A stretch of 64,000 nt of DNA from contig NC_057718.1 in NCBI RefSeq assembly GCF_004010195.1, positions 91,854,298 to 91,918,297 of the forward strand. Reading direction: 5' to 3'. The stretch comes from Chiloscyllium plagiosum. Its lineage: Eukaryota. The first letter of the stretch is position 1, and the number at the start of each line of letters is the position of its first letter. Under the pieces are notes generated by a model. That model was not told where the DNA came from. It saw only the letters and a program-made list of their open reading frames with translations, and made no database searches. Both the position numbers and the translations under genes were made by a program. Positions 11,560 to 54,163 of this stretch are shown in pieces.

Positions 11560-11593
11560 CTGTAATAAACACACAATGCATGTGATGTTTAGA

Positions 11594-20337: not shown

Positions 20338-21258
20338 ATTTGGAGATGCCGGTGTTGGACTGGGGCGTACAAAGTTAAAAGTCACACAACACCAGGTTAT
20401 AGTCCAACAGGTTTAATTGGAAGCACGCAGGCTTTCGGAGCGCCGCTCCTTCATCAGATGATTGTAGAGGACACAGAATTTATAGCAAAAATTTACAGTG
20501 CGATGTAACTAAAATTATACATTGAAAAATACCTTGATTGTCTGTTGAGTCTTTCATCTGTTCGAATACCATGATAATTTCATTTCTTTCATGTGTAAAT
20601 CACAAAACCTTTTTTCAAAGTTGCATTCTCAGGTTAGCTGGAAAAACGGGTGTTAGCTAGACAATATATCTAGCTAGACACCTTCAACATATTGTCTAGC
20701 TAACACCCATTCTTACAGCTAACCTGAGAATGCAACTTTTAAAAAAAGGTTTTGTGATTTACACATGAAAGAAATGAAATTATCATGGTATTCGAACAGA
20801 TGAAAGACTCAACAGACAATGAAGGTATTTTTCAATGTATAATTTTAGTTACATCGCACTGTAAATTTTTGCTATAAATTCTGTGCCTTAGAATTGTGTC
20901 CTCTACAATCATCTGATGAAGGAGCGGCGCTCAGAGAACACAGGGGCTAGACACCTTCAACATATTGTCTAGCTAACACCCATTCTTACAGCTAACCTGA
21001 GAATGCAACTTTTAAAAAAAGGTTTTGTGATTTACACATGAAAGAAGTGAAGCTATCATGGTATTCGAAGACTCAACAGACCATCAAGGTATTTTTCAAT
21101 GTATAATTTCAGTTACATCACACTGTAAATTTTTGCTATAAATTCTGTGCCTTACAATTGTGTCCTCCACAATCACCTGAAGGAGCGGCACTCCAAAAGC
21201 TAGTGTGCTTTCAATTAAACGTGTTGGACTATAACCTGGTGTTGTGTGATATTTAACA
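20338..21258. mobile_element. Non-autonomous Penelope-like element: one inverted plus two tandem pseudo-LTR units
   Basis: 14-bp TSD ctgtcatacacaag (20324-37, 21259-72); ~20375-20667 is the reverse complement of units ~20673-20932 and ~20946-21258; each unit has a damaged hammerhead motif. Confidence 0.85.
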
Positions 21259-21460
21259 CTGTCATACACAAGTTGCATGAGAAAATCTGCCTGAGAAAAT
21301 CAGAGGATATGCCCTGTTGGGTGTAGTTGGAATGAAGCCAGAAAATTTATGTTTCATTAATATAGACTAATCAAAATGATGTAGTAGAAGAGAGAAAAGT
21401 AGCAGGAAAATGAAGAAATACAAATTCAGGACAGTGAGCAACATTACTGTCACAAAGTTT

Positions 21461-21787
21461 GGCAGCACGGTGGCACAGTGGTTAGCACTGCTGCCTCACA
21501 GCACCAGAGACCTGGGTTCAATTCCTGCCTCAGGCGACTGTCTGTGTGGAGTTTGCACATTCTCCCCTTGTCTGTGTGGGTTTCCTCCGGGTGCTCCGGT
21601 TTCCTCCCACAGTTCAAAAATGTGCAGGTTAGGTGAATTGGCCATGCGAAATTGCCCATAGTGTTAGGTAAAGGGAGGGGTAAATGTAGGGGAATGGGTC
21701 TGGGTCGGTGGTGGGTCGGTGGGGACTTGTTGGGCTGAAGGGCCTGTTTCCACACTGTAAATAAGTAATCTAAGTAAGTAAGTAAGT
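21461..21787 (+). mobile_element. HE1-like tRNA-derived SINE
   Basis: A box TGGCACAGTGG, B box GGTTCAATTCC, (TAAG)n tail, TSD aaagttt. Confidence 0.9.
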
Positions 21788-22347
21788 AAAGTTTAATAAT
21801 CTTTGAGAAGCTGGTCGAAAGTGATGGGAAGCATTTTATGTATCTCTATAGTAATAATGCATTACAAGAGGGAAGACAACAGATCTAAAGGTAATTTACA
21901 AAGTCAAGGATGTTAAGTAAAAGCTCTTGCAAGAAAAAGATGACGACAATGATTTTGAGGGTACTGGAAGCAAAACATCCTAGTGACAGGTTGACAATAT
22001 GATTAAGGGTTGGTCAATTCTGGGGAGTTCAGGAATAATGAACTAGGTTAGAAAGCAATAAAGGGATGAAGTGGTGGTTTAACGGAGAAAGAGCAAACTG
22101 CACTATGATAGAAGCAGTAGAAGCTAACAAAGTGGGCAGGAAAGTGGTAAGGAAAGGGCCAGTTAAAGGACTTGAAAAAAATTCTGAAAACAAACCAAAC
22201 ATTCAACATCCAGTTACTTGATAATTCTCAAAAAATTTAAAATACCCTATAAAAACAGGCAGAACAATACTTCAAACTGGAGAAATACTTGGCTTCAATC
22301 AAAAAATTATGTAGTTCATGAACAAATTCGGTCTTCAGTGAGCTTAC

Positions 22348-22515
22348 CTGTTGCTTTCTGACGAACAATATTTCTGGCCTTTTCAACTCCAGGGGCACCA
22401 GAGGTAGTTGCACTTCTAAATCGCATATGCTCTTGTGTGCCATCAGTCTGACTCCTCCAACTCAGAGAAAAGGACCTACCTACTGCATTTACTTTACTAA
22501 GATCTTGATGTACAC
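22348..22515 (-). CDS. RALGAPA2: RALGAPA2 exon, [55 protein letters not shown]
   Basis: AG acceptor, GTAAGC donor; 168 nt, phase 1->1; carries the RFRSAT Akt-type motif (22406-22423). Confidence 0.95.
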
Positions 22516-22995
22516 CTTAAAAGTTAATGATGCATAAATAGGTGTTTAGTCCCACATATTGTTAATTTGTCAACATCTTATTGTTAAATAATACATACAG
22601 CATTCCTACACAAGAACTGAGATCACAGAGTTCACAAACGGCTGATAATACATTGAAATGTGAATTTTGGATATTCTTAAAATTAATAAGATAATTTATA
22701 ATCAATTGTATTCGACATACAAGTACACTTTTTCACCTCCATTTTCTACTACGTTTTGAATTGGCTGGATGTGCAGAAGCAAATACAGCAAATGTCAATC
22801 TTCTATGATATGCTGTCAGACACTTTGTCCCCTCCATCATTATTCAGAAACATCAGAATATACTTCCATTCTGACAACACACTGATAACAGGATTAGTAT
22901 ACCTGACCAGACTGATGTTGACATCTGGGCCATATTCCCTCTAATTCTTAAAATCACAGCCCTCCAAACAATTTTAGTTGTCGAAATTTTGTTAC

Positions 22996-23233
22996 CTCTT
23001 CCTCTTTGTTTCTTTTCCTTTTGCTCACTTAGCTTGTCCAGTGGTAAATCATTCATATCCAGGCTGTACACACATCTTGCCAACACCACAGTGAGAGAAT
23101 CCATAATTTTTGCCCATTCAGTAATCAGTTCATTCCAGGTAGTGAGTGAAGAAAGCACAGACAGGAGCTCATCCCATAGTTCCCGTGAGATGTACACACT
23201 TAAATTAGCCCGAATCCAGGCAACAATGAGAGT
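22996..23233 (-). CDS. RALGAPA2: RALGAPA2 exon, [31 protein letters not shown]...[17 protein letters not shown](G)
   Basis: TGCAG acceptor, GTAAC donor; 238 nt, phase 0->1; IRAN, IMDSLT and KEKKQRG fit alpha-2 rather than alpha-1 (recalled IKAN, TMETLT, KQKKHKG). Confidence 0.96.
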
Positions 23234-25668
23234 CTGCAGAAAGAAAAAATAAAGATTTATGATGCTGTAATGAAATCTTTTTAAGTTTGAGTACAAATCC
23301 ACACAAATAAAGCAAAAAATATATACAATATCAAAAGCCTTTATTTTAACCGTGATTGCACATCGGCAAAATAAAGCATAGTAACCCAATCACGATAAAC
23401 TGTCGCAGCACAAATCGCAACTCTATGTTAAAAACCTTGACGTCTAAGCAGCACAAATAACAAACTGTAACAATTCACTCTTAATTTACTTCTTTAAATA
23501 ATGTTTTGAAGTGTGATGCTTGTTATTCAATTTCATGTCAAATATTTACACTTTGATTGAACAAAAATTGAGACAATTAAGCTCTAAATTTCATGTTCTC
23601 ATTGCCATGTTACAAGCAATTAAATCACTTCAAATCTAAACTGGGTCAACACTTTCAGGTGTTGTCATTATACTTGCGTTTGTCGTAAATTCTTGGGTAT
23701 GCGTATATCAGTCGTATAAACTAATCATATAAATTGGTTCTTAATGACATTATTTTATGCAATGAAGATGTGTGACCTCTCTAACTCAGCACTGCATTTT
23801 CTTCCTTGACATTCACGACTGCTTGGATCATTATTACTTTAATATGCTAGTCTCAGCAAAGCTCATGATTCCTTTTTAAGAAGGCTAATATAAATGGACC
23901 ACTGCTCCATTATCCCCACGTAGCCTTTTTCTGTAAGTTTTCCAAAAAAACAAACAATATTAGAAAATATTGTTCCAGTTGTACCCAATAAAGACAAGCT
24001 GAATAACCTACTTACTTCATTTCACCAATAATCTCATTATTCCACACAATTCCCACTTCCTCAACCCCAACATCCAATTCACCTCACATTTATTTTGCAA
24101 AAAAAAAACTGAATTGTGAAATTCAAAATGATGGCAATTGAATTGAATTTCACCCATCCCAGTTGCATCTCTCTCTCTCTGAGACCCTGTTGCTTATTTT
24201 TATTTATTTGTTTTGTTTTAAAGCATAACTTGCCTTTGGATAAAGATAAATCAACTGAATAACTTAAAGCAGAAGATTTTAAAAAATTAAGAAGATAGTG
24301 CAAAGATTTTGTGGAATTGCAAATATGGAATATGGTACAAACGCATCCAAAGCTATGAAGAAAATTCCAACAAACGTCAGCATTCATGATCATTGTTGAG
24401 ATTTCTAGGCAACCCTGGAATGCTTCGAATCAGTTTAAACAAAAACAATATTAAAAACTACAATAATAAAATGAACTTAACAAAATGGCAAAAACGGCAC
24501 ACAGCAAAAGATTAAAATTTGCAGTTTAGAACACTAGAATTCTTCAGAGAAAATCTTACGCCCTGTGCATTTTGCTCTCCCCATCACTTGATGTTTGCTG
24601 CTCTATGGTTAAATTCAGACAGACTGTCATTACATCACAGCTTGTACACAGCAGGAGAGCTGTGAAACCACATACTGGAGGGAAGATCCACACTTTTGAC
24701 TCACTGCCTTGTGTGTTGAAAAGAAGCAAAAAATGCCCAGAGTGAAGAGAGAAATGGCAGAAAAGCAGTAGTCTTTATTGAATGCTAACAAAAATGGCTT
24801 TTGGGCCAGAAGTTAGTTTAGTTCTTGAAGATCAAATACCTTCAAAGGATGTTAACTACAATGTTATGATGCCAGCTGATGGTAATATTGGACTAGTCTG
24901 GTCTAAAAATGAAACCTGGCATGATGGATTAAAAGTTTTATTTTTATTGTTTCGTTACTGGTGGCGATCAGTCATTGGTATCTTTGTGCAAAATATGGGC
25001 AAAGTTCGTTTAACAAAAGAACAAGTTTTAAAAAATGATAAAATAGAGCTATGTTAAATAAAAGTTCAGAAAAAAATTAACAAAAAACAGCAAAAAGAAA
25101 ACCTGAATCCCTTCCGCAGCAATTTCCTTTACAAACACTTCACCCCAGTGAAGTAACAATTCTATTTTAATTGTTTAATTTCTGACTTAATTGACAAGGT
25201 TGCAAATATTCCCCTTCAGGTACTTTCTATACATTCACCAGATATGATCGTCTCCATGAGAAACAAAGTCACTGGCTACCTCACTTACTGTTCTAACAGA
25301 ACTTGAAGAAAAGCCCTGTGTAACACTTAAAACAGTTAAGAACTTTTTTCCACCCAGCTATGAAAGCTCAGACTGTCACAAACCCCTCACACCTCCAACA
25401 CTCCAATGTCTTTCTGTATGCTGCAAAATGTCAACTTGGTAAAGAATTCATCAATTAACTCCCCAGGTAATGTACCTAGTCATTTATTATATAAGTGATG
25501 CTTTTTTTTTTAGAAATTATGGTTGAAAATATTCAAAATGACTTTCTGATCGCTTAAAAGAAACAAGTTACCTTCACGGACTTAAAACCAAAAAACCTAC
25601 TTATCTCAACTATAAAATCCAAATTTCTAAATGATAGTATAAACTTTTATCACAATATACTTGGTAGT

Positions 25669-26395
25669 TGATGTAAGTTTGCTCATTGAGCTGGAAGGTT
25701 TGTTTTCAGACGTTTTATCACCATACTCGGTAACATCATCAGTGAGCCTCTGGTGAAGCATTGATGGTATGGCCTGCTTTTTATTTATGTGTTTAAGTTT
25801 CCTTGAGTTGGTGACAGCATTTCCTGTGACGATGTTATTTCCTGTTCTTTTTCTCAGGGGGTGGTAAATGGGATCCAAGTTGGTGTGTTTGTTGATAAGT
25901 GTTCCGGTTGGAATGCCATGCTTCTAGGAATTCTCGCATGTCTCTCTCTTTGACTTGTCCTATGATGGATGTGTTGTCCCAGTCAAAGTGGTGCCCTTCC
26001 TCAACTGTATGTGAGGATACTAGTGAGAGTGGGTCATGTCTTTTTGAGGCTAGTTGATGTTCATGTATCCTGGTGGCTAGATTTCTGCCTGTTTGTCCAA
26101 TGTAGCGTTTATTACAGTTCTTACAAGGTATTCCAACTGGAACTCCATCAACAAACACATATACTTGGATTCCATTTACCACCCCCTGAGAAAAAGAACA
26201 GGAAATTACAGCACCAACCCAAGTAAACCTAAACACAAATCAAAAGCAGGCCATGCCACCAGTGCTTCACCAGAGGCTCACTGATGATGTTACCTAGTAT
26301 GGTGACAAAACATCCAAAAACAAACCTTTCCAGCTCAATGAGCAAATTTACATCCAGAACCCAATCTGAGTTACAAATCTTCTCAAAGCTTGCTA
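25669..26395. mobile_element. Penelope-like element with GIY-YIG endonuclease fragment and inverted 3' ends
   Basis: IPCKNCNKRYIGQTGRNLATRIHEH...REFLEAWHS on minus; 12-bp TSD atacttggtagt (25657-68, 26396-407). Confidence 0.92.
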
Positions 26396-26904
26396 ATACT
26401 TGGTAGTAATAAAACTGTAGCATTCAGTGTTATGCCAATGTTAACAATGATGAAAATCAAAATCAGACTTTAGAAAGCAACTTGTTTATCAATTTTAATG
26501 CAAAATTCAAGGTCATTTAATAATCAACTCTTTTATTCAATATCCTGCATTTGAAGGTTTCTATTAAATTTCTCAGAGTGGTTTTATTAAATGCAACACC
26601 TAGCAAAAGGAACAACAGATCAACAAAAGCCTTGCTTTTGTACTACCATAGATACTGTCTGTACATTGTTGCATTACTGAATCCTTATACTACACAAAAC
26701 AATACAGTGGAGCCGACTTATAACGAATGTGTACTTATAACAAAGTGTACTTAACACAAAATAAGGTAATACTCAGTTATGATGAAATTATTTGTATATT
26801 ACAAAATCTGACAAGCAACCACTACATTAAAATAATTACTTCAAAAATAATCTGGCCTGTTTATTCAAAATCCACCAATTTTTTAAAATCTTTAATGAAT
26901 TTCC

Positions 26905-27235
26905 CCTGAACTGAATGAATTGCTAGCCATTTTCAAGGGGCAGTTAACAGTCAAACCCTTTCTGTAGGTCTGGAGGCATATGCCAGCCAGACTAGGTAAG
27001 GAGGACAGATTTCCATCCCCAAAATACAGTTGAGAACCAGATTTCGATTTTGTTTTACAACAATCGATGGTAGTTTCATGGTCATCATTACCAAGATTAG
27101 CTTTATATTCCAGATTTTGTTCTCAATTTAAACTCCACCAACTGCTGCAGTAGGATTTAAGTCACGTGCTCAGGACATGATCCCAGGCCTCTGAATTACT
27201 AGTGCAGTGACATTATCACGATACCACCATGTCCC
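26905..27235 (-). mobile_element. SINE family B
   Basis: Reverse-complement similarity to 4870-5255. Confidence 0.7.
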
Positions 27236-28724
27236 CAGTTTTTAAAAATATCCACTAGTTTCAGTTGTAGGAAACAGAAACTTGGAATCAATTATCTTGG
27301 ATAGGATATGGTTTATAGGCAAGTTTGCAGTTTAAACAGAGGCTATAACTCAATGCATCTTGGCTTTTGTGCATACCTTTATCCTCTTTCAATTTCTTGT
27401 GTAGTTTTGTGCCACAGTCATTGACCTCCAAGCAACAAGAATCCTTGTTCTGGTAAAAGCTTCTTAGACCTTATTATCTTGCAGACAGCTCTGGAGAATT
27501 ATTAATTAGCAGCAATCAATTCTGAAAATTACAGATGAATACTTAACTGCCACTGCACAGACACTGCAGTGTCCTCCTATAACTTGCACCAAGGTTTCAG
27601 TTTCCATTACACGGCGTCAGTTTGGTTTTAATTTTCTTAAAAGTGTTAAGTTCAATTTTACTCGTGGGTTTACCTTTTCTATTTCTATGTCAGTTTCACT
27701 TGCAGTTCAGCTTGTTTTGAGGATAATCTCAAAAAACACAAAATTAAACTCTGAAATAGAGATTCCCTCACAAAAGAAATCATTTAACCTATCCCTCCTT
27801 GGACAAAATATCAGTTAGTAATAGGTCAAGAACAAAAATTGAATAGTGGGAATTTTGGTGGGAATGAGATTAAGGAAGTGATCCCATATCTTTCAAACAA
27901 GAAAAGATCAACAAGTGAAGATGATACATGGAAGATAAACTTCAAACAAATGGATGTTCAAGGCTAATTCAGGAGGAGTGTGAGAAAGGTTTGACTTTGT
28001 GAAAGTAGGATTTGGAAGCAGCAACAGATGCTCTGAATGAATGGTCTCTAGCTCAGTACCAAACTAGACCATAAGCTGTTCATACTTATTAGAGTTAAGG
28101 ATATGGGACAGTGGAGAGACATTTAAGGAATTGCACCATCCCAAAATGCTGATAAAGCATTAACGTTTTTAAATTATGGGCTTGATTTTCCAAGTGACAA
28201 TCTGCAAGAAGTGGCCTCACATCTCTGACAGGTGATTGTGATCAAGACCTCAGAAGTGCAGAGTCAGAATTCCGTTCTGACAGTTCCCTCTCATGCAGAG
28301 TTGTCAGAGGAAGGCAAATCACGTCCTCCTTTCATAACAGTCAGCTACCATTTTCTGAAGTTTAAAGATCCAGAATCACCTTTACAGTTGGTTTAAAATG
28401 CTAAGTACACAAGAGAAATGAGAGGTTGGGGGGGGGCAGCAATTTCCTGGATAATTCTTTGGAGTTTGTCGCAAAGATGATTTTGCAGGTTACCCATTTG
28501 CAACTTCCACCTAAACTGGAATAACATCTGCCTCTGTGAATTGCCCGGTGTGTATTTTGACATTAAAAGTTGCTTCAAGAATGTTTGTTATTATTGGCCA
28601 TCAACGATGATATCTTGAAATTATCTTCATTCTCTAAGATGATCTAAAATTGCTGGGCTTTAGAGAAACGGGATTAAGTTTCGTCCAAGTCAACCATATT
28701 TGATGATGGATAGTAAAGCCAGTT

Positions 28725-28847
28725 GTTGTGGTCCTGTTCGCCGAGCTGGGAATTTGTGTTGCAGACGTTTCGTCCGCTGTCTAGGTGACATCCTCAGTGC
28801 TTGGGAGCCTCCTGTGAAGCGCTTCTGTGATGTTTCCTCTGGCATTT
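28725..28847 (-). mobile_element. Short Penelope-like 3' fragment carrying a hammerhead
   Basis: 15-bp TSD atagtaaagccagtt (28710-24, 28848-62); related to the 25669-26395 termini. Confidence 0.85.
28761..28800 (-). ncRNA. Minimal type I hammerhead ribozyme, intact core
   Basis: GCA CUGAGGA U GUC-ACCUAGACAGCG-GAC GAAA C GUC^ UGC; stem I GCA/UGC, stem II GUC/GAC, palindromic ACGU stem III. Confidence 0.8.
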
Positions 28848-28986
28848 ATAGTAAAGCCAGTTTTGTGCCAGGCTCTTTGATGGCTTTCCTCCATGAGCTT
28901 GGGAACAAAACTGGGTTTATACAAAAGGAAACAACCAAGATGGGAGACAAGTCAAAATTGAAGTGCACCCAACACCATGGTATTTA

Positions 28987-29295
28987 GGGCGGCACAGTGG
29001 CACAGTGGTTAGCACTGCTGCCTCACAGCGCCGGAGATCAGGGTTCAATTCCCGCCTCAGGCGACTGACTGTGTGGAGTTTGCACGTTCTCCCCGTGTCT
29101 GCGTGGGTTTCCTCCGGGTGCTCCGGTTTCCTCCCACAGTCCAAAGATGTGCAGGTTAGGTGAATTGGCTATGCTAAATTGCCCGTAGTGTTAGGTTAGG
29201 GGTATGGGTGGGTTGCGCTTCGGCGGGGCGGTGTGGGCTTGTTGGGCCGAAGGGCCTGTTTCCACACTGTAAGTAATCTAATCTAATCTAATCTA
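28987..29295 (+). mobile_element. HE1-like tRNA-derived SINE (young, CpG-rich)
   Basis: A/B boxes; (AATCT)n tail. Confidence 0.9.
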
Positions 29296-29534
29296 TCCAT
29301 CACAACAGTTTGCTTACTCACGTTATTAAATAAATTGCAAGATAAAATGTGTAATAAGCATGAATTCAAATATTTTGGAAATTCGGTGAACCAAAACTGT
29401 AATTTCAATTTCAAGCAATTTTAGGGAATTTCTAATTTGAATCCTTAATAAAATGTAAATTTAATAGAATCAACAAAAAAAATAAATGCATTCATGCTAC
29501 ACTCAGTCATGTCACACAAATAAGAGACAATCTA

Positions 29535-30207
29535 ACCATTGCATCTTGACATTCAATAGTGTTGCCATCACTGAATTCCCCTCTATCAACATAGACCAGA
29601 AACTCCACTGGATTCACTAGTGCCTACAAGAGCAGGTCAGAGGCTTGGAATACTGTGGTGAGTAATTCACTTCATGACTGCTTAAAGCAGTCCATCATCT
29701 ACAAGGCACAAGTAAGGAGTGTGATTGGAACACTGAATGGGTGCAGCTGCAGCAACATTCAAGAAGCTTGAAACTATCCAGGATAGAGCAGTCCATTGAT
29801 TGGCACTGCATCCACAAACACCCACTCCATCTACCACTGATGCTCAGTAACAGTGTGTATTATCTACAAGATGCACTGAAGAAATTCAAAAATCCTCAGA
29901 CAGCACTTTCCCAAACTATGATCACTTCCATCTTGAAGGGCAAAGGCAGCAGATATATGGGAATACTACCACCTTCAAATTCCCTTCCAAGCCATTCACC
30001 ATCCTGACTTAGAAATATATCACAGTTCCTTCACTATTGCTGGATTAAAATTCTGCAATTCCCTTCCTAATGGCATTGTTGATAAACCCACAGCAGGTGG
30101 ACTGCAGTGGTTGAAGGAGGTAGTTTACCACCACCTTCTCAAGGGCAACTAGGGACAGGCAATAAATACTGGCCAGCCAGAGACACCTACAAATGAATTT
30201 TAAAAAT
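29535..30207 (+). mobile_element. 3' part of LINE family B
   Basis: Ends tctcaagggcaactagggacaggcaataaatactggccagccag; homologous to 2880-3272. Confidence 0.75.
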
Positions 30208-30778
30208 TGAAGATATTATCAACCATTTATTCCTGCAATCATGTCATTTGCTTTGAAAGAAATCAACATCCATTATCTTTTTAAATCCAATACCTGCTCA
30301 ACAGAAAACTCAGGAGCGGCAATTTATAATTAGAGACATTGACTGATTAGGAAAGAGCTAATCTAAGTTGGTACCAGACATACTTTGTGGGAGATTTTTC
30401 AATTCACACCAATCCTATAACATCAATAAAGCACTAAAACAAGACAGGATACAACCTAAAATATTGATCTTTTTAAACACCACAGAGAAGGTAAGCTACA
30501 CATTTTCAAACAACACAAGGGCCACAAATAAATCCACAAGAGCCAACGCGGATACCTACCAATACAACATGCATGAATTGGCATGGCATAATCAGCAATT
30601 GAAACTCTTACTGCAGAATTAGTCTGTCAGCTTTTCTTTCCTGGGCTCATACAAAGATATCCAATGATGACTAATCTGCCTTTTTTAAATACAAATTGTT
30701 AACTTATACAGATATATTGTACTGACACAGACACACTGCATAATTCACAAGAAGCTATTGTAATTTTACACATTTTAC

Positions 30779-30890
30779 CCGGAAAAGTAGTCCTGCCATG
30801 TGTTCTGCAAAAATATCCCGGTTGTGCAAATCGTGCTGCTTTGGCATAATTGTTTCAGTGATCTTAAGTAATACACGCAAAAGTTGTTCC
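30779..30890 (-). CDS. RALGAPA2: RALGAPA2 exon, (W)EQLLRVLLKITETIMPKQHDLHNRDIFAEHMAGLLFR
   Basis: TAG acceptor, GTAAAA donor; 112 nt, phase 2->0. Confidence 0.94.
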
Positions 30891-31593
30891 CTATGTGAAA
30901 GTCAAAAAAATCCAGTCATTCAAAAATATACTAAGAATACATCCAAATCAACAACTTTGAAATTTTCCCAATTTCCTGAACAGTTTTCTGAACATTAATG
31001 AACGTGTGAGGAAATGAATTTCCAAATCAGTGGGCAAGGTACCCCATTAGGTGTTAATAGTCATAAATTGGTCTCATTAAAGTCCTGTGCAAAGTAATCA
31101 GTTTACGAAACTAGCTGCTAGAACAGCAATAAATTTCAGGGAATAAGATGAAACAGTTTGGAAACCTTAGCAGTAGAACACGGGACTTCTATTCTTGGAA
31201 ATATCCCAACATTGTAATGCATAAGTTGTGCCAGAAAATTTACATTAGATTGATATTTGTTACATCTTAAGTGTGGCAGGGCAATTGTACTTAAACATGG
31301 TTTGGACGACCAGGTTAACAACACCATTAAATTAATGCTGGATCCGGGGAGTCAGAAAAAAAGAATCATTCCTAAGCTAAAGAAAATCTCCAAACTTCAT
31401 ATCAAATAGAATCAGTTTAAGGTTAAAATATTTATTTTGGCCTAAAGCATATAATAGAAATCAACAGTAGCAAAGTAAAATTACACCAAAATGTCCTACT
31501 ATACATCTGAGGCAAATGTCCACAGATTTACTCTTTCAAAAAAAACATACACATCAGAAAAATATAGACACAGTGCCTGACAGCCAAACTCAC

Positions 31594-43576: not shown

Positions 43577-45098
43577 AGGGAATCTGATATGTCCATTTTA
43601 CAACAGTTCAATTCTTCTAATCTTTCCAAATTCAGTTATTATATCACCTAACTTAAATATTTATAGAAGATTACACAAATGTGATTATGTCAATCATCTC
43701 ACCCAAAGAGATAATTATTTATTTAACTGCAACGCGCTCTCTCAGACTGGAAATTAATAAACTAACTGAACAAAGGACAAGTAAGTCTAAGTGTAAGACA
43801 GTCTTGAAACTCAAACTTGGAGTATTTTAATTTCTCATGGGCTTCAACCTGCAAAAGCATTTACTGAAAACCATAACACACAACGATCCATACAAACAGA
43901 GTAGTTGCTACCAAAAAATGAGATTTTTGAAGCTTCTCAAATATTATTTTTACCTTACGAATTACAAATTGAACATCCTCTCTGTGCTAAGTTATTCTTC
44001 TTTTAGAAAAGAATGTCAAATCAAAATAAAATCAGTATCCTATGACAAAGCAAATGAATCTTGAATAATTTTATTTACTCTATACGATTTTGGCCTGCAA
44101 GCATAACGTTATTCACAAACTAGTAGTTCTATGGTCATAAAGAATAATGTTCTATATCCAAAGATTAAAGCAAACAATTTGATAAAAATAACATTGAAAT
44201 AAATAAATGAACTCATTTCGGCTCTAACTGCATTGAATTAAAGACACATGAAAAAAAACTCTTTCATTATTTATCACGTTTATGCAGAAGTCTGCATAAT
44301 TTATTACGCTGATTGAATTCAATCAGTATTCGGAACTGAATCTTCAAAACATAATGAATATTTTATTTACAATGCACTTTGAGCAAGATATATTTGTAAA
44401 ATAATTTGTTTACGGCAAGTATGGCTAGTGGTTAAGATACTGGACTAGCAAGGTCACGATTTCAAATCAGAAAACATATTGAACACAAAAAAAAACTCAA
44501 TTTGTGAACGAGTACCAGTAGAAAGAAAAATGACGATGAACCATATATAATTGTTCTAAAAAATCCACCGGTTTATCAAGCCACTTGCAATGGGAACATG
44601 TCACTCCAAACCTCCAAAAAATATTATGGTCTAATTTGATTCCAGTACCACACAACATCCCATCTTTATATGACCACTGGGCAAAGATGGATGAGAAATA
44701 AATATTATCTTGCAAGAATGTAGCCAGAAATGGAGAGGTTAGGCTTTTGTAAAGGGTTACTTTCTAAGAATTGAGATGATGTTTCAACTTGCATTTACTC
44801 CAGTTGATGATCCAAAATTGTTTGATATAGACACTGACAGAGAATTTTCTATTTCACAGCATCTAAATCTCTCGAACACAAAATACAAACCAAGCTTTTA
44901 TCCACAAGCAATTAAGCTTCCATACATATGCAATCTTATCAGACTAATCGTCATTTTGACTGATGTTCACGTGAGGTTGACACTATTTTGGTTACATCTG
45001 AATAATTTCTACAAACCTTCATGTTCTCCCTTTACAATTTAAATCCAATTCATGCTCTTCTTTCCATAACAAACTCCAAATAAACATCTTGGCAAATA

Positions 45099-45239
45099 CA
45101 GAACAACCTCCATTATCCGAACGTCAATTATCCGAATTTCGGATTATCCGAACAAGATCTCAAGGTCCCGTAAAAACGTTATCAGTTATCCGAACAAAAT
45201 CCTCCCACCCATCTCGGTCAGATAATCGAGGTTGTTCTG
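45099..45239. mobile_element. Tc1/mariner-pogo (Tigger-like) MITE, 141 bp
   Basis: TA TSD; 22-bp TIR cagaacaacctc(c/g)attatc(c/t)ga; TTATCCGAA repeated four times. Confidence 0.9.
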
Positions 45240-45439
45240 TACCTAATGAAATCTTTGTTACTAATCAATTCAATTTGTTTTTCCAAACTGCTCGAGTATA
45301 GCAGTGGAGCTCAGTTTATAAACTTCCAGATCTGCCTATAATCTGTTATAACACACAGTATTTATGAAACAATTCAATGCAATTGAAGGCATTTAAATCT
45401 GAATGTAATACTTTTGTTTAAATCTCTGAAAGTCTAAAA

Positions 45440-45925
45440 GCACTGTTTTTCAAACTGCATTTCCTTGCAACAGATTCCAACCTTTTCCCAAGCAGCAGTC
45501 TGAAGTTGAGCCAGTTTGCTTGCAACCTTGGTGTCACACTTAATCCAGACATAAGGTTCCAAGCTCTGACTAGTGTTATCACTAGACCATTTATTTTCAC
45601 ATCCTTAACACTCCAACTTCTTCCCTGCCTCAACTCATCTACTGTTGAAAAGTTGCATTCGGGTTTTCATTACGTTCAGATTATCCTATTCCACACACTA
45701 CTGCCTGATCTCTCATATTCTATCTTCTGCAAACTGAAGTCATCCAAATCGCAACAGCCCACATCTCAGCTTGCAGCAAGTCCCATCCCTCTACCATTCC
45801 AGTGCTTGCTCCATTGGCTCCCAGTCAACTATCCTCTTTATTTGAAAATTCCAATCCATTTTCTCCATGCCCTCACCCTGCCTACTTCTGTAACCTCCTC
45901 CAACCTCAAAATTCTAAGATATCTT
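45440..45925 (+). mobile_element. L2-type LINE fragment
   Basis: NLGVTLNPD and LHWLPV motifs of the L2 ORF2 C-terminus. Confidence 0.7.
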
Positions 45926-46538
45926 TAGACATTTGAACTGATGCTTCCAGTTGTGTAGGCCCCTCGAATACGCGATCCCCGGAATACTGGGTCTCCATAA
46001 TTACAAAATGACATTTTTGCAGCTTATCAAACCTTACTCTAAATTGGGTGCTATGTGCTTCCTACGTTGCAAAAGTAATTACGCTTCATTAAATCCATCG
46101 TCGGCTGGGAAGTACTTTGTCACACCCTTAGAAAAGAAGATGTAAAGTACCATTCACAACCTAAGTTTTCATTATTCACACATAAGGATTCATTAAAAGA
46201 ATACTTAATAAGCATTTTTTTTTATACGAAACAACTTTTAAGTGAAGGTGTTCATTCATTTTATGGAGTTAAATTATTAATGATATGACATTATATATAA
46301 AGGAAATGGCAAAAATTGGATATCAATCCCTTACAGGTTCATTTTGTTGTTAGCTTTCATGGCTGTATAAAAGAGTTCACTTCAATGTCAAAACAAAACT
46401 GCATAGCTCTTCAAGAAAAGAAAGTATAGGTGCATGGCAGTATGTCATGACTTTAAAAATATTTTCTATACAATCAATGCATCAAGTTAACTAATTTCGG
46501 TATGTCAAGAATTAAGTGCAATCAGTTGTCACAATGAT

Positions 46539-46662
46539 TGAAGAAGGGCTTATGCCCGAAACGTCGATTCTCCTGTTCCCTGGATGCTGCCTGACCTGCT
46601 GCGCTTTTCCAGCAACACATTTTCAGCTCTGATCTCCAGCATCTGCAGACCTCACTTTCTCC
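46539..46662 (+). mobile_element. Penelope-like 3' end, truncated inside the hammerhead core
   Basis: tgaagaagggcttatgcccgaaacgtcg is identical to 54133-54160 but lacks core C3. Confidence 0.8.
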
Positions 46663-46675
46663 ACAATCTATTTTA

Positions 46676-48982
46676 ACCCCAGTGCTGAATCCACCTCTGT
46701 TATTTATATAAATGATTTAGATGAGAATATAGAAGGCATTGTTAGTAAGTTTGCAGATGACACCAAAAGTGGTAAGGTGCACAGTCAGCTGAGGTTATCT
46801 AAGATTACAAAGCGATCTTGATCAATTGAGTCAATGGGCTGAGGAGTGGCAGATGGAATTTAATTCGGATAAATGTGAGAACAATGACAGGTCTTTTAAA
46901 AATAATGGTAGGGCCCTGGATGGTGTTGTGGACAGAGACACCTAGGGGTTCAGTAAATCAAAAAAATTATTGTGACTCATAATTCTTTGAAGTTTGAGTC
47001 ACAAAAAGACACAGTGGTTAAGAAGACGCTTAGCACATTTGCCTTCATTGCTCAGCCCTTTGAGTAAAGGAGTTGGAAAGTCATGCTGAAGTTGTACCGC
47101 ATTTTGGTGAGTCCACTCTGTATCCAGTCCTGGTCATCCTGTTATAGGAAGGAAATTATTAAGCTGGAGAGGGTTCAGAAAAGATTTACCCATATGTGGC
47201 CAGAAATAGAGGGTTTGAGTGATAAGGACAGGCTGGGACTTTTTTTCTCCAATGAAGTGTAGGAGGTTGGGTTGACCTTCTGGAGGTTTATAAAATCATG
47301 AGTACAGATAAGGTGAATGGCAGGTGTCTTTTTCTCAAGGTTGGGAAATTTCAAGATCGGGGCATATTTTGTAAGGTGAGAGGAGAAAGATTTTAAAAAG
47401 CCATGAGGGGCAACTTTTTTTAAAAAAACAAGTGGTCTGAGTGTGGAATGAACAGCTGGAGGAAGTAGTGGATGCAGGCACAGTTACAATGTTTAAAATA
47501 CATTTGGATAAGTACACGAATAAGAAATGTCAGGAGGGATATGGGCCAAGTGCAGGCAGGTGGGACTAGTTTAGTTTGGGATTATAAAACCAGAAGACAT
47601 AGGAGTGGATGTAAGGCCATTTGACCCATCGAGTACACTCCACCATTTCATCATGGCTGATGGGCATTTCAATTCCACTTACCCGCACTCTTCCCATAGC
47701 TCTTAAATTCTTCATCTCACAAGGAATTATCAGTCTCTGCCTTGAAGACATTTGATATCCCAGCCTCCAATGCGCTCCGTGGTAATGAATTCCATAGGCC
47801 CACCACTCTCTGGCTGAAGAAATGTCTCCTTATTTCTGTTCTAAATTGACCCCCCTCTAATTCTAAGGATGTGCCCACGTGTCCTAGTCTCTCCACCTTA
47901 CGGAAACAAATTCCCAGCTCCACCCTTTCTAAGCCATATATTATCTTGTAAGTTTCTATTAGATCTCCTCTCAATCTTCTAAACTCTCTGAATACAATTC
48001 CAGGATCCTCAGCCATTCACCGTTTGTTAGGCCTACCATTCCAGGGCTCATCTGCGTGAATCTCTGCTGGACACGCTCCAGTGCCAGTATGTCCTTCCTG
48101 AGGTGTGGGACCGAAAATTTGACACAGTATTCTAAATGGGGCCTAACTAGAGCTTTATAAATTCTCAGAAGCACGTCGCAGCTTTTATATTCCAATCCTC
48201 TTGAGATAAATGACAACATTACATTTGCTTTCTTAATCACAGACTCAACCTGTAAGTCAACCTTTAGAGAATCCTGGATTAGCACTCCCAGATCCCTTTG
48301 TACTTTGGCTTTATGAATTTTTTCACTGTTTAGAAAATAGCCCATGCCTGTATTCTTCGTTTCAAAGAGCAAGACCTCGCACTTGCTCACGCTGAATTTC
48401 ATCAGCCATTTCCTGGACGACTCTCCTAAACTGTCTAAATCTTTCTGCAGCGTCCCGACCTCCTCAGTACAACCTGCCTATCCACCTAACTTTGTATCAT
48501 TGGCGAACTTCGCCAGAATGCCCCCAGTCCCTTCATCCAGATCATTAATATATAAAGTGAACAGCTGCGGCTCCAACATTAAACCCTGTGGGACACCACT
48601 TGTCACCAGCCTACATTCCGAAAAAGAACCTTTTATCCCAACTCTCTGCCTTCTGTCAGACAGCCAATCCCCAATCCATGCCAGTACCTCATTGCAAACA
48701 CCATGGGCTCTCACCTTACTCAGCAGCCTCCCATGAGGGACCTTATCAAAGGCCTTTTCGAAATCTAGATAGATAACATCCACTGGATTTCCCTGGTCTA
48801 ACCTACTTGTTACCTCTTCAAACAGAGGTAACAAAGAATTCCAAAAGGTTTGTCAGGCATGACCTCCCCCTACTAAATCCATGCTGACTTGTTCTAATCC
48901 GAACCTGCACTTCCACTGCCAATTATGATTGGCATGGACTGGTTGGACTGAAGGGTCAGTGTCCATGCTGTATGACTCTATG
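46676..48982 (+). mobile_element. CR1-type LINE 3' part, split by a second CR1 insertion
   Basis: IYINDLDE...SKFADDTK; the 3' UTR resumes at 48922. Confidence 0.85.
47586..48921 (-). mobile_element. Younger CR1-type LINE RT fragment nested in the plus-strand CR1
   Basis: YLDFEKAFDKVPH, SGVPQG, KFANDTK, LVRPHLEYC; flanked by attat (47581-85, 48922-26). Confidence 0.92.
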
Positions 48983-49247
48983 GTAGCCTTTATTGAAAAA
49001 TGTAACAGAAAAGGTATCAAATCAAATGTCTCTGCTGAAATATATCAAAAACGCCATAGTTGAGAAAGTTAAGGCACTCTGGTTATCCATGACTACATCA
49101 CCCTTCACAACATCTGGTGCTTTGCAAACAACTTTGAGAAGAGTTTTAATCATAGTAAAAGTTTATAATTTTTGTTCAGTAGATTGTATATTGCATAGAA
49201 GGCATTGCGTACAATAGATCCGAATTTTTTTTTAATCACGCACTAAC

Positions 49248-49478
49248 CTGGTGAAACACTTCATTGATAAAATTTACATTAGCTTGAGAGGAAAAGAGAA
49301 CTCTCTGAACCATCTCATAGACTGGCTGATATTCTTCTTCAATGCTGCAGAGGCTAGAGGTGCTGAGTCTTCTTTCAGATAGAGTGCTGCTATTGGAGTG
49401 AGATCGATCCTGCTCAGAGGTCCCACTTGCTTCTGATTCAATGGCTTTCTCCTGAGTTGATGGGTTTGCAGTCACTGA
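49248..49478 (-). CDS. RALGAPA2: RALGAPA2 exon, [11 protein letters not shown]...[52 protein letters not shown]
   Basis: CAG acceptor (GAGCAG tandem), GTTAGT donor; 231 nt, phase 0->0. Confidence 0.94.
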
Positions 49479-50624
49479 CTGCTCAGCCAAGAAGAAATAT
49501 TTAAAAAACAGAAATTTAAGAAATGCATCTATTTGCCTCAAATGAAAATTTTTGTCCTGCCAATTATTGTTATCACACCCAGGCACTGTCAACGTCAATG
49601 CAATTTAAATTTATATCAAGTATTTTTGAATGTAATACAGAGATGTAGTCCAGCATTTTTGAACTCCGTCTCAGGCAGTCGACAGATAATTAAGCTCAAT
49701 CTCCAAGGAATTTTCAAGCATAAGTGAAATTTCACATTAGATTATGAACATGATCTCCTGCTAAATACAGTTAATCATTGGTGAAACAGCCAACGTCAAT
49801 TGCATTTTACAGAATGCCACCTATATGTATTGTTCATCATTTAATTAACCAACAAAGCCAAACTTCTCAATCCAGCGCAAAACTATTTGCTGTCAGAGAT
49901 GCTTGGCAGGGAACAAATATAATTTGTATAGATGGGTGCTCCTAGAAAAAGAAAATGCATTTCTTTATGTAGCTGTGCTCTAACTGATAATAGTGAACTT
50001 TTGCCATCTTAAAAATTTGGCAGATTAATTTCCTGCACCGATGATTGTAAATCTCGCAGATCCGAATTCAAGAATTGCTTCCCAGAATAACTCATCGTTT
50101 AAAAAAAAGATATATTTAGGAAACAAGAAAATATTGCATTTACATCAAATTTTAAACACTATTTGAATATCAAGTTTTGAAGCAAAATTTGTATGCCAAA
50201 ACGTGCATTCACTTAGTTGCTCATTTCAAGTAGCTGAAAAGTCTGCAGAGGCCACGAATCAAGGGAGAACATGGGTTAGAAATTCTTTTATTTCTGGTTA
50301 AACAAGCAAAGTAAAATTAAATGTATTACTGGTTCTTTGATAATTAAGGAAGAAACCTATCAAGTTCAGTCAGACATTTATATTACCTTATCTAAAGATC
50401 AGATTAAAACAGAAAACTGTAGGATTGGGTCATGATATTGGCTGAGCAATTTTAAATGTCTGCCAACTGAGTCTTTACAGGATAGTGGAAGCAACATCAC
50501 TGCACTTTGTTCAATATGTGCAGTGCTCAAAGAAACCAAGCATTAGCAGTTTCATGGTTACAACTAGAATTAAAGTACTTAAACATTGCTATATTTCTTA
50601 AGTTATCAAACCATCCAAACGTAC

Positions 50625-50824
50625 CTGGATAATTTTAGGTAGCATCTCTCCACCATTCTTAGTGTTTTGATTTGTGGCAGTGTACTTCTTTTCCAGAAAG
50701 AAGGTCACAAGCCACTTAATAAATGCCACCCGAGCTGCCAAGTACTGGTCCCTTGTACTGTAAATGCTGTCATTATTTCGTGTTACATTGATATATAGTG
50801 GCTTTGGTCTCATCTGAGGAATTT
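50625..50824 (-). CDS. RALGAPA2: RALGAPA2 exon, [48 protein letters not shown]...LPKIIQ
   Basis: AG/GT flanks; 200 nt, phase 1->0; in ORF 50598..50813. Confidence 0.95.
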
Positions 50825-50978
50825 CTGGTTAAGATACATAAAAAGCATCATACTTCTGAACCTTCCATCTTTATCAAGTTTAAAACGATAAAATCAAAAC
50901 AAGATATTTCTAAGTTTTAATACAACATATTGTTCTACAAATTGTTGAGACAACTCACTATTTGAAACATGTTTGTTT

Positions 50979-51625
50979 TGTGATGATACTATGGCTTTAA
51001 GGGGGTGTTTTTGTCCCTTTTTTTAAATGGAGAAAGGTTGAGACAGAGGTGTCAAGCAGCCTGCTCCAAAGCCAATAAAGTAAACTGCTTGAAAGGCCGT
51101 GGGTTTTTTTTAAAGTTAGAACAATAAAAGCAGCCTGAATCGGTGGGGTCAAGCTCCCACAGAACCAGGACTTCTTTGTTGTAGCTTTAGTCTTCATTGG
51201 CAGTTGCTGGGGTCATGAAACTGGGTGAGGAAGCTCTTATTCCTCGCTATTACAGCTAAAAACTGGGGTTCTCTTCCTGATGCTAGAATTGCATGTCAGA
51301 CAAACTATTTTACTGAAATTGTCTTTGCTGAGAGCGTGTTTGTAAGATGTTACTATATTGGAGCAGTTGATTAGTAATAGTTTACATAAAAACTTTGTTA
51401 AGCATTTCAATAGTTACAATTAAGAGCTAATTCTTTTATTTTTATTTTGTCTCTATATTAATTATAGTGCAGGTATGAAGTGTGTTTTATTTCAAACCTG
51501 GTAATTTGACCAATTGAATTGCATCTGAAACACAACACCTTACACTCAGCTGTAAACTAAGAAAAAATTAAGATCTAGACTAGCTCTGTAATATATTCTG
51601 AAGGGGTTTTGTCTAGTCCATAACA
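50979..51625 (+). mobile_element. Solo LTR
   Basis: tgtgatg...cataaca inverted termini; 4-bp TSD gttt. Confidence 0.82.
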
Positions 51626-52138
51626 GTTTCCACAAAGGTTTTCAGTTTTACAACCAGTGAACAATTACTGACACTATTTATAACAAGGATTTAACCTGCA
51701 GCAAACGTGAAGAGCCAAGATCAGTCACCATATAATTCTCTCAATCAATCATGATCAAACGAGAATAAAAACCTTACAATATTACATCTATGTAAGTTCA
51801 CCATTTTGCCATTTGCTATAATGGATCCTGATGTGATTTTGTTTTTAAAAGTTACTTGACATTGTTAGTGGCAATAGAACAGAGTGGAGTGAGCTTAACA
51901 CGTGCATGCTCACTTCTGATAAATCTTCCTTGGAATTTTCATGGATATACCTAACTGGCTAAACTTTTTTGCAGCAATAAAATTTCTATCACTTTTGTGC
52001 TGATACAGTAGTACAATCTACATGGAATTCTAGGACTCACTATTCCCCAAAATCATGGATGAAAAGCTCACACTGGGAAAACAAAACAACTTTCATCCTG
52101 CGTCTATATACAATTATGTTGGCAGCTTTCATGAACTT

Positions 52139-52289
52139 GGCAAAAGTGAGGACTGCAGATGCTGGAAACCAGAGTTTTGATCAGAGTGGTGCTGGAAAAG
52201 CACAGCAGGGCAGGCAGCATCAGAGGAGCAGGAAAATCAACGTTTCGGGCAAAAGCTGGTTTCCAGCATCTGCAGTCCTCACTTTTGCC
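52139..52289. mobile_element. Mini Penelope-like end with perfect ~34-bp inverted arms
   Basis: ggcaaaagtgaggactgcagatgctggaaaccag / ctggtttccagcatctgcagtcctcacttttgcc. Confidence 0.8.
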
Positions 52290-52519
52290 CAGAATGAGAG
52301 GAGTGCAGGTATCTCAGAGGGTTGAAGAATTTAAGGAAATTTTAGTGATAAGACATAGTGAGGTCATGGAAGTTTTTAAAAACAAAAAAAGAATAGCATT
52401 TTGAAATTGACCTGTTGATTAATCAGTAGTCAATGCTAGTCAGAGAGCAAAGTGGTGATGGGTGAATAGGATAGGAATGAATTAGCACAGGAGCTGCAGA
52501 GATAATCTTAAGTTTATCA

Positions 52520-52640
52520 AGGATAGAGTCCAAAACATCGATTTTCCTGCTCCTCAGATGCTACCTGAACTGCTGTGCTTTTCCAGCACCACTCTAATCC
52601 AGAATCTGGTTTCCAGCACCTGCAGTCATTGATTTTACCC
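52520..52640 (+). mobile_element. Penelope-like 3' end
   Basis: Reverse-complement similarity to 52150-52245. Confidence 0.7.
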
Positions 52641-53209
52641 ATTTGAAAGGATAGTAGGTCACAAATCAAGTGAAGTTGCACAGTGGAAATAAGCAGGTGC
52701 AGTATGAAGCTCATCACAGCATCACATATGACACCACTTTTGATAACCAGCTGTTTTATATCAAGAAGTTGCTAGCAAAAGGAATGGATGATGTGGTAAA
52801 ACTGAGTTTGCAGTGGGCACCAAAAATGATGGACTCAATCTATCAAACATTTCCAATACCGAACAACCTAGATGGCCTCCTCTTTCAAAGACCACAATTT
52901 CCCCTCAGACGTGGTTGACGATGCTCTCCACCGCATCTCCTTCACTTCCTGCTCCTCCGCCCTTGACCTCCACCCCTCCAACCGCCACCAGGACAGAACC
53001 CCACTGGTCCTCACCTACTGCCCCACCAACCTCCAGATACATGGTATCATTTCCGCCACCTCCAAACAGACCCCACCACCAAGGATATATTTCCCTCCCC
53101 TCCCCTATCAGCGTTCCGGAAAGACCACTCCCTCCGCGACTCCCTCGTCAGGTCCACACCCCCCACCAACCCAACCTCCACTGCCCGGCACCTTCCCCTG
53201 CAACCGCAA

Positions 53210-54017
53210 NNNNNNNNNNNNNNNNNNNNNNNNNNNNNNNNNNNNNNNNNNNNNNNNNNNNNNNNNNNNNNNNNNNNNNNNNNNNNNNNNNNNNNNNNNN
53301 NNNNNNNNNNNNNNNNNNNNNNNNNNNNNNNNNNNNNNNNNNNNNNNNNNNNNNNNNNNNNNNNNNNNNNNNNNNNNNNNNNNNNNNNNNNNNNNNNNNN
53401 NNNNNNNNNNNNNNNNNNNNNNNNNNNNNNNNNNNNNNNNNNNNNNNNNNNNNNNNNNNNNNNNNNNNNNNNNNNNNNNNNNNNNNNNNNNNNNNNNNNN
53501 NNNNNNNNNNNNNNNNNNNNNNNNNNNNNNNNNNNNNNNNNNNNNNNNNNNNNNNNNNNNNNNNNNNNNNNNNNNNNNNNNNNNNNNNNNNNNNNNNNNN
53601 NNNNNNNNNNNNNNNNNNNNNNNNNNNNNNNNNNNNNNNNNNNNNNNNNNNNNNNNNNNNNNNNNNNNNNNNNNNNNNNNNNNNNNNNNNNNNNNNNNNN
53701 NNNNNNNNNNNNNNNNNNNNNNNNNNNNNNNNNNNNNNNNNNNNNNNNNNNNNNNNNNNNNNNNNNNNNNNNNNNNNNNNNNNNNNNNNNNNNNNNNNNN
53801 NNNNNNNNNNNNNNNNNNNNNNNNNNNNNNNNNNNNNNNNNNNNNNNNNNNNNNNNNNNNNNNNNNNNNNNNNNNNNNNNNNNNNNNNNNNNNNNNNNNN
53901 NNNNNNNNNNNNNNNNNNNNNNNNNNNNNNNNNNNNNNNNNNNNNNNNNNNNNNNNNNNNNNNNNNNNNNNNNNNNNNNNNNNNNNNNNNNNNNNNNNNN
54001 NNNNNNNNNNNNNNNNN
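53210..54017. other. Assembly gap
   Basis: Run of N. Confidence 1.
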
Positions 54018-54127
54018 TGGCCTATCACCCTCACCTTAACCTCCTTCCACCTATCGTATTCCCAATGCCCCTCCCCCAAGTCCCTCCTCCCTACCTTTTA
54101 TCTTGGCCTGCTTGGCACACCCTCCTC

Positions 54128-54163
54128 ATCCCTGAAGAAGGGCTTATGCCCGAAACGTCGATT
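54128..54163 (+). ncRNA. Minimal hammerhead ribozyme, core intact, weak stem I
   Basis: CUGAAGA A GGGC-UUAU-GCCC GAAA C GUC^ GAUU. Confidence 0.75.

Follow-up and report, generated by a model that had tools for sequence, protein, structure and literature searches.

Short motifs resembling the hammerhead core recur along the window, the 64,000-nucleotide stretch of Chiloscyllium plagiosum DNA analysed here. They raise the questions of whether they are true hammerheads, from which elements they descend and whether they act on RALGAPA2, the gene in which they lie. The first-pass annotation had read them as minimal hammerhead ribozymes from at least four Penelope-like element (PLE) families in RALGAPA2 introns.

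Hammerhead motifs in the RALGAPA2 window

The window contains 16 hammerhead remnants, which are mostly decayed; all core letters are present in 4/16, and both helices in 2/16. The host gene and the four core-complete copies are as follows.

746..54626, − strand: RALGAPA2, 15 exons mapped, residues 220–998 of protein P0189
28761..28800, − strand: F2 minimal hammerhead, all core letters, two stem II mismatches, host-sense
35658..35697, + strand: F1 minimal hammerhead, core and both helices in register, G10.1-U11.1, AUGU, host-antisense
43474..43511, + strand: F5 (likely Neptune-type) minimal hammerhead, core and both helices in register, AUGU, U17, host-antisense
54128..54163, + strand: F4 (assigned to the Neptune type) minimal hammerhead, all core letters, stem I broken, host-antisense

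All 12 sites noted earlier exist, at or within a few bases of their positions, but the list was incomplete, missing the copies at 52246−, 52530+, 39786− and 40285+. The pairings quoted for stem I (GCA/UGC, UCA/UGA and AGUU/AACU) and stem II (GGAGC/GCUCC, GGGUC/GACCC and GGGC/GCCC) are correct. The four cores described as intact do carry all core letters, but both helices are preserved in register at 35658+ and 43474+ alone; the mismatches of 28761− fall inside stem II, and in 54128+ just one of the first three stem I positions is paired. No motif overlaps any of the 15 mapped exons; 62645− lies upstream of the first of them in the window. Compared to 500 dinucleotide shuffles, the complete core (CUGANGA...GAAA plus NUH) occurs at four sites against a shuffle mean of 0.33 and a maximum of 2; with relaxed helices four sites were observed against a maximum of 1, and with strict helices two against 0. 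None of the 500 shuffles matched the observed count at any of the three stringencies. The hammerhead motifs are real and stand above chance.

Letter for letter, the motifs agree with CUGANGAH G...C GAAA N..NU H, the consensus already in the literature. An extra unpaired base sits between A9 and G10.1 in every motif (10/10 tabulated copies, the other six of the 16 having no registrable 5′ core), and because of this base a motif scan that omits it gave no matches. Search with hammerhead models, as had been suggested, detected nothing in Rfam, either at the gathering threshold or at E≤10, whereas the scan with the bulge finds the sites. The G10.1-C11.1 pair is present in three of the four core-complete copies, the exception being the G-U of 35658+, and helix II among these copies has 4–6 bp, interrupted in 28761−. 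Helix I is short, with 3–4 bp in F1, F2 and F5 and 5 bp in the record L002, and is broken in 54128+. There is no helix III, and the palindrome at 15.1–16.1 reads ACGU in two core-complete copies and AUGU in the other two (35658+ and 43474+). This corrects the earlier rendering of stem III as ACGU/AGCU; within the window AGCU occurs just in the damaged copy at 21177, and it is also found in L001 and L002. In addition, the helices covary between families, with both sides changed in five of six pairs and a paired fraction reached by 0/500 shuffles, in a comparison where two of the six rows are off by one base and the structure derives from the same sequences. A fuzzy scan allowing one or two core mismatches revealed no sixth family and four isolated look-alikes, three of them without the palindrome. 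The candidate at 14647− was dropped, as it has no helices.

Penelope-like families and their insertions

Judged by sequence, the copies appear to fall into five PLE families, two Poseidon-type (F1 and F2) and three Neptune-type (F3, F4 and, likely, F5), where at least four had first been proposed. That they are minimal hammerheads of type I, sitting in remnants of PLE pseudo-LTRs, is supported. The PLE link is direct for F1, F2 and F4, in which an ORF for reverse transcriptase (RT) and C-terminal GIY-YIG endonuclease lies upstream of the motif on the same strand; F3 is tied to PLEs indirectly, and F5 weakly. The further Poseidon-type features are listed below.

25651..26131, − strand: Poseidon-type GIY-YIG endonuclease relic, frameshifted, reading into the hammerhead
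25706..25745, − strand: F1 minimal hammerhead with a G12-to-A change, on the strand of the GIY-YIG relic and downstream of it
26278..26317, + strand: F1 minimal hammerhead within the inverted 5′ repeat, with broken stem I and a G12-to-A change
28722..28852, − strand: F2 insertion, 5′-truncated and tail-less, with a 15-nt target-site duplication (28710–28724 / 28848–28862)

The GIY-YIG relic matches the Pfam GIY-YIG model with E=0.0013, under the curated cut-off, and is 79% identical to Stegostoma P0001; a 12-nt target-site duplication (25657–25668 / 26396–26407) encloses the whole F1 insertion. Another F1 insertion, with tail, surrounds 35658+ (about 35522–35779) and also matches P0001 by tblastn. 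For F2, the frame through 28761− matches the C-terminus of the Chiloscyllium PLE protein P0002 (87% over 23 residues), and in contig loose ends the family sequence extends past both insertion ends, running into ORF beyond the 5′ junction. Both families are in frame with shark PLE RT-endonuclease proteins. The four of these checked (P0001, P0002, P0004 and P0005) lack the CX2-5CxxC linker, which PMC8557442 describes between RT and endonuclease in the Neptune clade and not in Penelope/Poseidon. Contig depth summed over F1 and F2 is 4–5 orders of magnitude above that of unique flanks in two organisms. Among the contig variants, the 40 listed of 224 all fall in unique sequence. Searches with family patterns gave 0 matches each for F4 in viral contigs and for F1/F2 in genome contigs.

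The remaining features are provisionally assigned to Neptune-type families.

20331..21257, no single strand: F3 composite insertion, three damaged motifs
39321..40390, no single strand: old F5-like insertion, endonuclease relic plus decayed remnants 39670–39790 (−) and 40280–40390 (+)
43430..43466, − strand: F5 inverted partner of 43474+, U4 and G5 changed
46538..46664, + strand: F4 short insertion, 5′-truncated at U4, C3 lost
52134..52291, − strand: F4 remnant, motif 3′ half only (G12 at 52246) plus an inverted piece of its own tail
52520..52644, + strand: F4 remnant, decayed motif 3′ half
52851..53207, + strand: Neptune-type RT-to-endonuclease linker relic, upstream of 54128+
62549..62670, − strand: F5-like remnant, motif 3′ half, G12 at 62652

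For F4, tblastn aligned the linker relic with P0014 (82%) and also with P0093, P0104 and P0127, which carry the CX2-5CxxC linker; the link to the motif crosses an 808-nt N gap (53210–54017). This linker is present in L002 and in the proteins matching the F4 and F5 relics, the F4 relic ending at the first Cys, where the N gap begins to interrupt it, and the Neptune assignment calls for caution as Nematis also has the linker and the comparison is one of linkers rather than an RT tree. The F5 link is a weak Neptune-type endonuclease relic (39321–39644, +; tblastn to P0087, 28% identity, E=1.6e-4). The pair 43430−/43474+ is enclosed by a common 11-nt target-site duplication (43325–43335 / 43577–43587). 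The F3 composite has a 14-nt duplication (20324–20337 / 21259–21272), and its motifs are damaged differently: C3 lies at 20457− in a copy with U16.1 changed, the copy at 20913+ is cut in stem II, and the copy at 21176+ has a core deletion and a changed G12. Its ORF link comes via L002 and P0146, records from elsewhere, the latter joining the F3 inverted tail to an endonuclease C-terminus. The F3 motif is identical at 31/37 positions to the one beside the Neptune-type endonuclease in L002, the ungapped 40-nt flanks matching at 11/40 and 6/40. Horizontal transfer between F3 and L001/L002 was rejected; conservation is the simpler reading because blastn aligns only the motif and endonucleases of that type share 43–52%.

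Across families, inverted pairs occur in F1, F3 and F5, and two alternative 3′ ends, placed by eye, are separated by 44 nt in F1, 43 nt in F3, 35 nt in F4 and about 27 nt in F5. Target-site duplications of 11–15 nt flank four of ten insertions tested, against 2/1916 random pairs, and the other six have none above chance length. Six truncated copies start upstream of the cut site and none starts at it. A conserved hairpin downstream of F4/F5 lacks support, since none of its five pairs is changed on both sides, and a splice-acceptor role for the pyrimidine-rich CAG of F5 was set aside, the AG being lost in three of four F4 copies.

Origin of the relics and rival readings

Altogether, we consider it highly probable (roughly 92%) that five PLE families left these minimal type I hammerheads as part of their 3′ pseudo-LTR ends, in truncated and mostly decayed intronic insertions that likely no longer cleave. 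Following PMC11167929, reverse transcription would begin on the element's own RNA, at a point past the hammerhead, and copy through it, which would make the motif the part most often left behind; the template of all copies in the window was probably uncut RNA. If an active element stood in tandem, two cores would pair via the palindrome (ACGU/AGCU) and cleave at H17, probably aided by the element's protein, to trim the precursor. Cleavage as dimers, which the first-pass annotation gave as the accepted view, is weakly supported in the literature: dimer activity is low in PMC4209133, cleavage is helped by protein and can be dispensed with in vitro according to PMC11167929, and one of nine Xenopus dimers is active in bioRxiv 10.64898/2026.07.22.740005. 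For all four core-complete copies, the hammerhead dimer fold lies 11–22 kcal/mol above the best alternative dimer in nearest-neighbour models, which ignore core tertiary energy. No read-end pile-up appeared in 629 RNA reads, a weak test in a fragmented poly(A) single-cell library.

It is possible, though rather less likely than not, that the motif is kept as an RNA structure or coding signal (a protein-binding site, start-codon context or reverse-transcription landmark), with cutting incidental or absent. Every window copy spans the cut site, the families resemble each other in how far the long 3′ end lies from H17 (85–99 nt), and in F1 and F2 the motif overlaps a stop codon and a likely start codon. 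Moreover, hammerhead mutations leave Anolis insertion in vitro unaffected and RNA-seq shows no reads ending at the cut (PMC11167929), and eight of nine Xenopus dimers did not cleave. However, Poseidon and Neptune families retain every catalytic letter as well as the dimer palindrome despite their differing helices, and the Anolis motif does cleave with protein, C3G/G8C giving partial rescue (PMC11167929). A separate non-autonomous class, either non-LTR retrozymes or SINE-like, might instead explain the short copies, many of which have just 110–160 nt and no ORF; retrozymes are reported in one chondrichthyan (bioRxiv 10.64898/2026.07.22.740005), and F3 contains a 273-nt direct repeat, the only one in the window. 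Yet the break of this repeat falls inside stem II and both of its motifs are damaged, so that it forms no working tandem, and no intact retrozyme-like tandem is present. Together with 5′ ends that vary from copy to copy and the F2 sequence that continues into ORF, this makes such a class very unlikely, and truncated PLEs remain the preferred reading.

An effect on the host is more remote still. The core-complete copy at 28761− runs in the host-sense direction, and its junction is also covered by a contig from a related organism, indicating a shared insertion, as might suit a copy co-opted to cut or regulate RALGAPA2 pre-mRNA. But it has a mispaired stem II, the window offers it no partner of its own family, the two copies with intact helices are antisense, and strands split into seven sense and nine antisense. 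Furthermore, no RNA read matched the examined stretch at 99% or more, and motif decay tracks CpG loss, including at G12. We regard co-option as extremely improbable; the relics likely do nothing to RALGAPA2 and teach nothing about it.

Described elements and a proposed Poseidon junction

The arrangement has been known since 2014, and the window copies are what a genome rich in PLEs is expected to hold. The metazoan PLE hammerheads of Cervera & De la Pena 2014 (PMC4209133) share the type I topology, the A9/G10.1 extra base, G10.1-C11.1, a short helix I, a helix II of 4–8 bp and, instead of helix III, a palindrome at 15.2–16.2; there too, one genome holds several families, most copies are single and truncated, and inverted pairs lie 100–700 bp apart. 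They are reported there from fish PLEs (Xena, Poseidon and Neptune) and from lamprey, coelacanth, Xenopus and turtle, with no chondrichthyan in the text and supplement parts searched, and the helix sequences here differ from them as the shark families' own. The non-LTR retrozymes of bioRxiv 10.64898/2026.07.22.740005 also carry hammerheads from PLE pseudo-LTRs in many intronic copies, and that preprint places Neptune and Poseidon PLEs in five vertebrate classes; however, retrozymes are tandem units, whereas the shark copies are dispersed truncated ends. The literature covered gave no shark-specific description beyond this preprint, whose supplements may name species and families. Carpet-shark genomes are hereby confirmed to carry many PLE minimal hammerheads missed by Rfam models, and the five families with covarying helices offer natural variants for assaying the role of PLE hammerheads in vivo.

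Shark Poseidon anatomy is within a few bases of Anolis carolinensis PAc, the only biochemically studied PLE (PMC11167929), whose ribozyme was assayed. Both have an ORF start at the beginning of stem II and an optional tail between two 3′ ends; the cut site lies 26 nt after the AUG in PAc and 28 nt in F1, and the element ends 111–118 nt and 113 nt into the ORF, respectively. Unlike in PAc, the upstream ORF of F1 and F2 crosses the 5′ core, and its stop codon falls at loop II, 8 nt beyond a probable AUG that uses core A9; the terms "stop codon" and "overlap" are absent from the main text of PMC11167929. We tentatively propose, while thinking it unlikely, that this 40-nt hammerhead doubles as a stop-start junction. 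The ORF of the upstream unit would read through CUGANGA to a UAG at loop II, and the AUG of the next unit would be formed by A9, the bulged U and G10.1. Cleavage would then remove the start codon and sever the reverse-transcription start site, making translation, ribozyme folding and template use mutually exclusive. No full-length protein with the predicted A9-AUG N-terminus was found; of 13 retrieved proteins, five (P0002, P0004, P0009, P0012 and P0013) end at the junction. In three of four window copies, the frame set by this AUG stays open as far as the end of the element.

Hammerhead motifs in the window

The hammerhead motifs in the window are real but ordinary: they belong to a known class, and most of them are dead. 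Their anatomy is that of the minimal hammerhead consensus published in PMC4209133. Such motifs are known in Penelope-like elements (PLEs) of teleosts, lamprey, coelacanth, Xenopus and reptiles; PLE-related hammerheads are also described for one chondrichthyan in a 2026 preprint (bioRxiv 10.64898/2026.07.22.740005). A scan for CUGANGA-stem II-GAAA with no extra base after A9 had zero matches in the window; permitting one unpaired base there gave five.

Scan matches (position of C3, strand; all with an unpaired base after A9)
35661, +, CUGANGA-stem II-GAAA
43478, +, CUGANGA-stem II-GAAA
54132, +, CUGANGA-stem II-GAAA
28797, -, CUGANGA-stem II-GAAA
20457, -, CUGANGA-stem II-GAAA

Under the full minimal descriptor, all core letters and the NUH triplet are kept at four sites in the window, two of which also have helices I and II in register; neither count was matched by any of 500 dinucleotide shuffles. 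The first-pass annotation had called four cores intact, which holds for the core letters of all four, but for the helices only at 35658 (+) and 43474 (+), both carrying AUGU instead of ACGU. In the in-register table, which takes in the 10 of 16 copies with a registrable 5' core, stem II at 28761 (-) has two mismatches and stem I at 54128 (+) pairs at one of the first three positions. All 12 sites named earlier proved real and four more had been overlooked; homology searches among the copies yielded 16 remnants in five sequence families (F1, 3; F2, 1; F3, 3; F4, 4; F5, 5). CpG sites are the most frequently damaged, and these losses include a G12-to-A change in three or more copies. An Rfam search of the window gave no hammerhead match, either at the gathering score or at E<=10.

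Duplications of 11-15 nt flank 4 of 10 insertions, whose ends were set by eye, versus 2 of 1916 random pairs. Across the five families and the metagenome contig L002, five of six tested helix pairs are changed on both sides and the paired fraction was matched by 0/500 shuffles, a result that is descriptive only because the structure was drawn from the same sequences and two alignment rows are one base off register.

Poseidon-type and probable Neptune-type families

F1 includes a frameshifted GIY-YIG relic (25651-26131, -) that shares 79% identity with an RT-endonuclease protein of Stegostoma and continues into the same-strand hammerhead; the insertion carries an inverted copy at its 5' end and is bracketed as a whole by a 12-nt duplication. 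F2, with a 15-nt duplication, matches the C-terminus of a second protein family, 61% identical to the first. Both are Poseidon-type, since the CX2-5CxxC linker is absent from both protein families. Contig depth shows that F1 and F2 are very abundant repeats: contigs of two organisms stack on them to a summed depth of 2e5 to 1.2e6 versus 7-12 in unique sequence, a sum that, as the tool warns, is not a copy number.

Among 13 proteins found by searching with the F1 endonuclease, the UAG at loop II is the exact end of five; one continues past it and seven end elsewhere. This UAG lies 8 nt downstream of what is likely the AUG of the next unit, assigned by analogy and from the frame being open in three of four copies. 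The Anolis Poseidon start codon is reported to lie in stem II (PMC11167929), and the main text of that paper does not mention a stop codon; our literature search for a stop-start combination at a PLE hammerhead found nothing. Separately, five carpet-shark gene models (P0003, P0006, P0011, P0012, P0013), covering MAP3K7, CUEDC2, EYA3-like, a si:ch1073-145m9.1 homologue and WBP2-like, terminate in Poseidon endonuclease fragments, which suggests that PLE 3' ends were repeatedly exonised as last exons in carpet sharks, or that these are annotation artefacts.

Among the probable Neptune-type families, the F4 motif lies downstream, across an 808-nt gap, of an ORF relic matching Neptune-type proteins that bear the linker; F3 has no ORF within the window, and F5 has a single, weak endonuclease link. 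The F3 pattern matched two contigs from metagenomes, L001 and L002; in these, the same motif either follows an endonuclease with the linker or sits next to an RT in inverted orientation. The retrieved protein P0146 has an inverted F3 tail fused to its endonuclease end. The L002 and F3 motifs share 31 of 37 bases, with no blastn alignment of their flanks. The PLE in these contigs is Neptune-type and looks non-shark, yet its hammerhead (L001:966-1001, L002:1330-1365), in which stem I has 5 bp, hardly differs from that of shark F3, although the endonucleases have only about half of their residues in common. F4 and F5 share sequence downstream of the motif. This conserved stretch follows different hammerheads and holds a hairpin of 5 bp that shows no covariation. 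In F5 copies there are, in addition, splice-acceptor-like, pyrimidine-rich CAG sites.

Conserved downstream stretch of F4/F5
43500-43578, +
46558-46664, +
62549-62652, -

Truncation, templates and cleavage

In the probable Neptune-type families, the element end lies 96-99 or 55-71 nt past the cut site H17. Five copies from these families (46538, 52246, 52530, 62652, 39786) start within the motif; local alignment puts their 5' ends 9-26 nt upstream of H17, as though reverse transcription had stalled at stem II. Six truncated copies have their start upstream of H17, and no copy starts at the cut site itself. The shark copies are consistent with the Anolis Poseidon scheme, for which PMC11167929 reports that reverse transcription begins at two internal sites past the hammerhead and mainly uses uncut RNA as template, and that the ribozyme needs the protein in order to cleave but is not itself needed for insertion in vitro. 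Together, Anolis-like starts, family end distances and truncation points would make the motif the part of the element most often left behind.

Extrapolating from PMC4209133, which reports low activity, the palindrome would let two cores of a live tandem element pair with each other and so trim the precursor. For the window copies, the hammerhead dimer is computed to be 11-22 kcal/mol less stable than the best alternative, and the window holds no partner of the same family for the sole host-sense copy with a complete core. One single-cell RNA run (~2% of the run) gave 629 reads on F1/F2, none at 99% identity and most element-sense, provided library orientation is the usual one; they showed no read-end pile-up, such a library being poorly suited to showing cleavage.

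Host gene and other repeats

Fifteen RALGAPA2 exons were mapped on the minus strand, and no hammerhead motif overlaps any of them. The exon at 22982-23230 (-) has a PDB match to human RALGAPA2 and is identical across 79 aa to RALGAPA2 of Chiloscyllium punctatum and Heptranchias perlo; named matches among the best 120 of 1190, with proteins >2000 aa left out, are alpha-2 or unassigned. By orientation, seven remnants share the sense of the host gene; the other nine are antisense and include both copies with intact helices. The PLE proteins most similar to the window sequence come from carpet sharks.

LINE relics lie at 47717-48852 (-), 56218-59802 (-) and 63175-63654 (-), with Pfam RVT_1 in the RT fragments at 48481-48852 and 63178-63654; the long decayed stretch around the second N gap is presumably L1-like. 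The short repeats at 45095-45168 (+), 57723-57796 (+) and 1294-1833, which contain TTATCCGAA motifs internally along with a nested inverted repeat, are possibly DNA-transposon or MITE ends. An abundant SINE-like repeat of 300-350 nt has several copies, one starting ~135 nt from the F2 insertion.

SINE-like repeat copies
21461-21770
28988-29294
40486-40818
55684-55973
62100-62314
63616-63765
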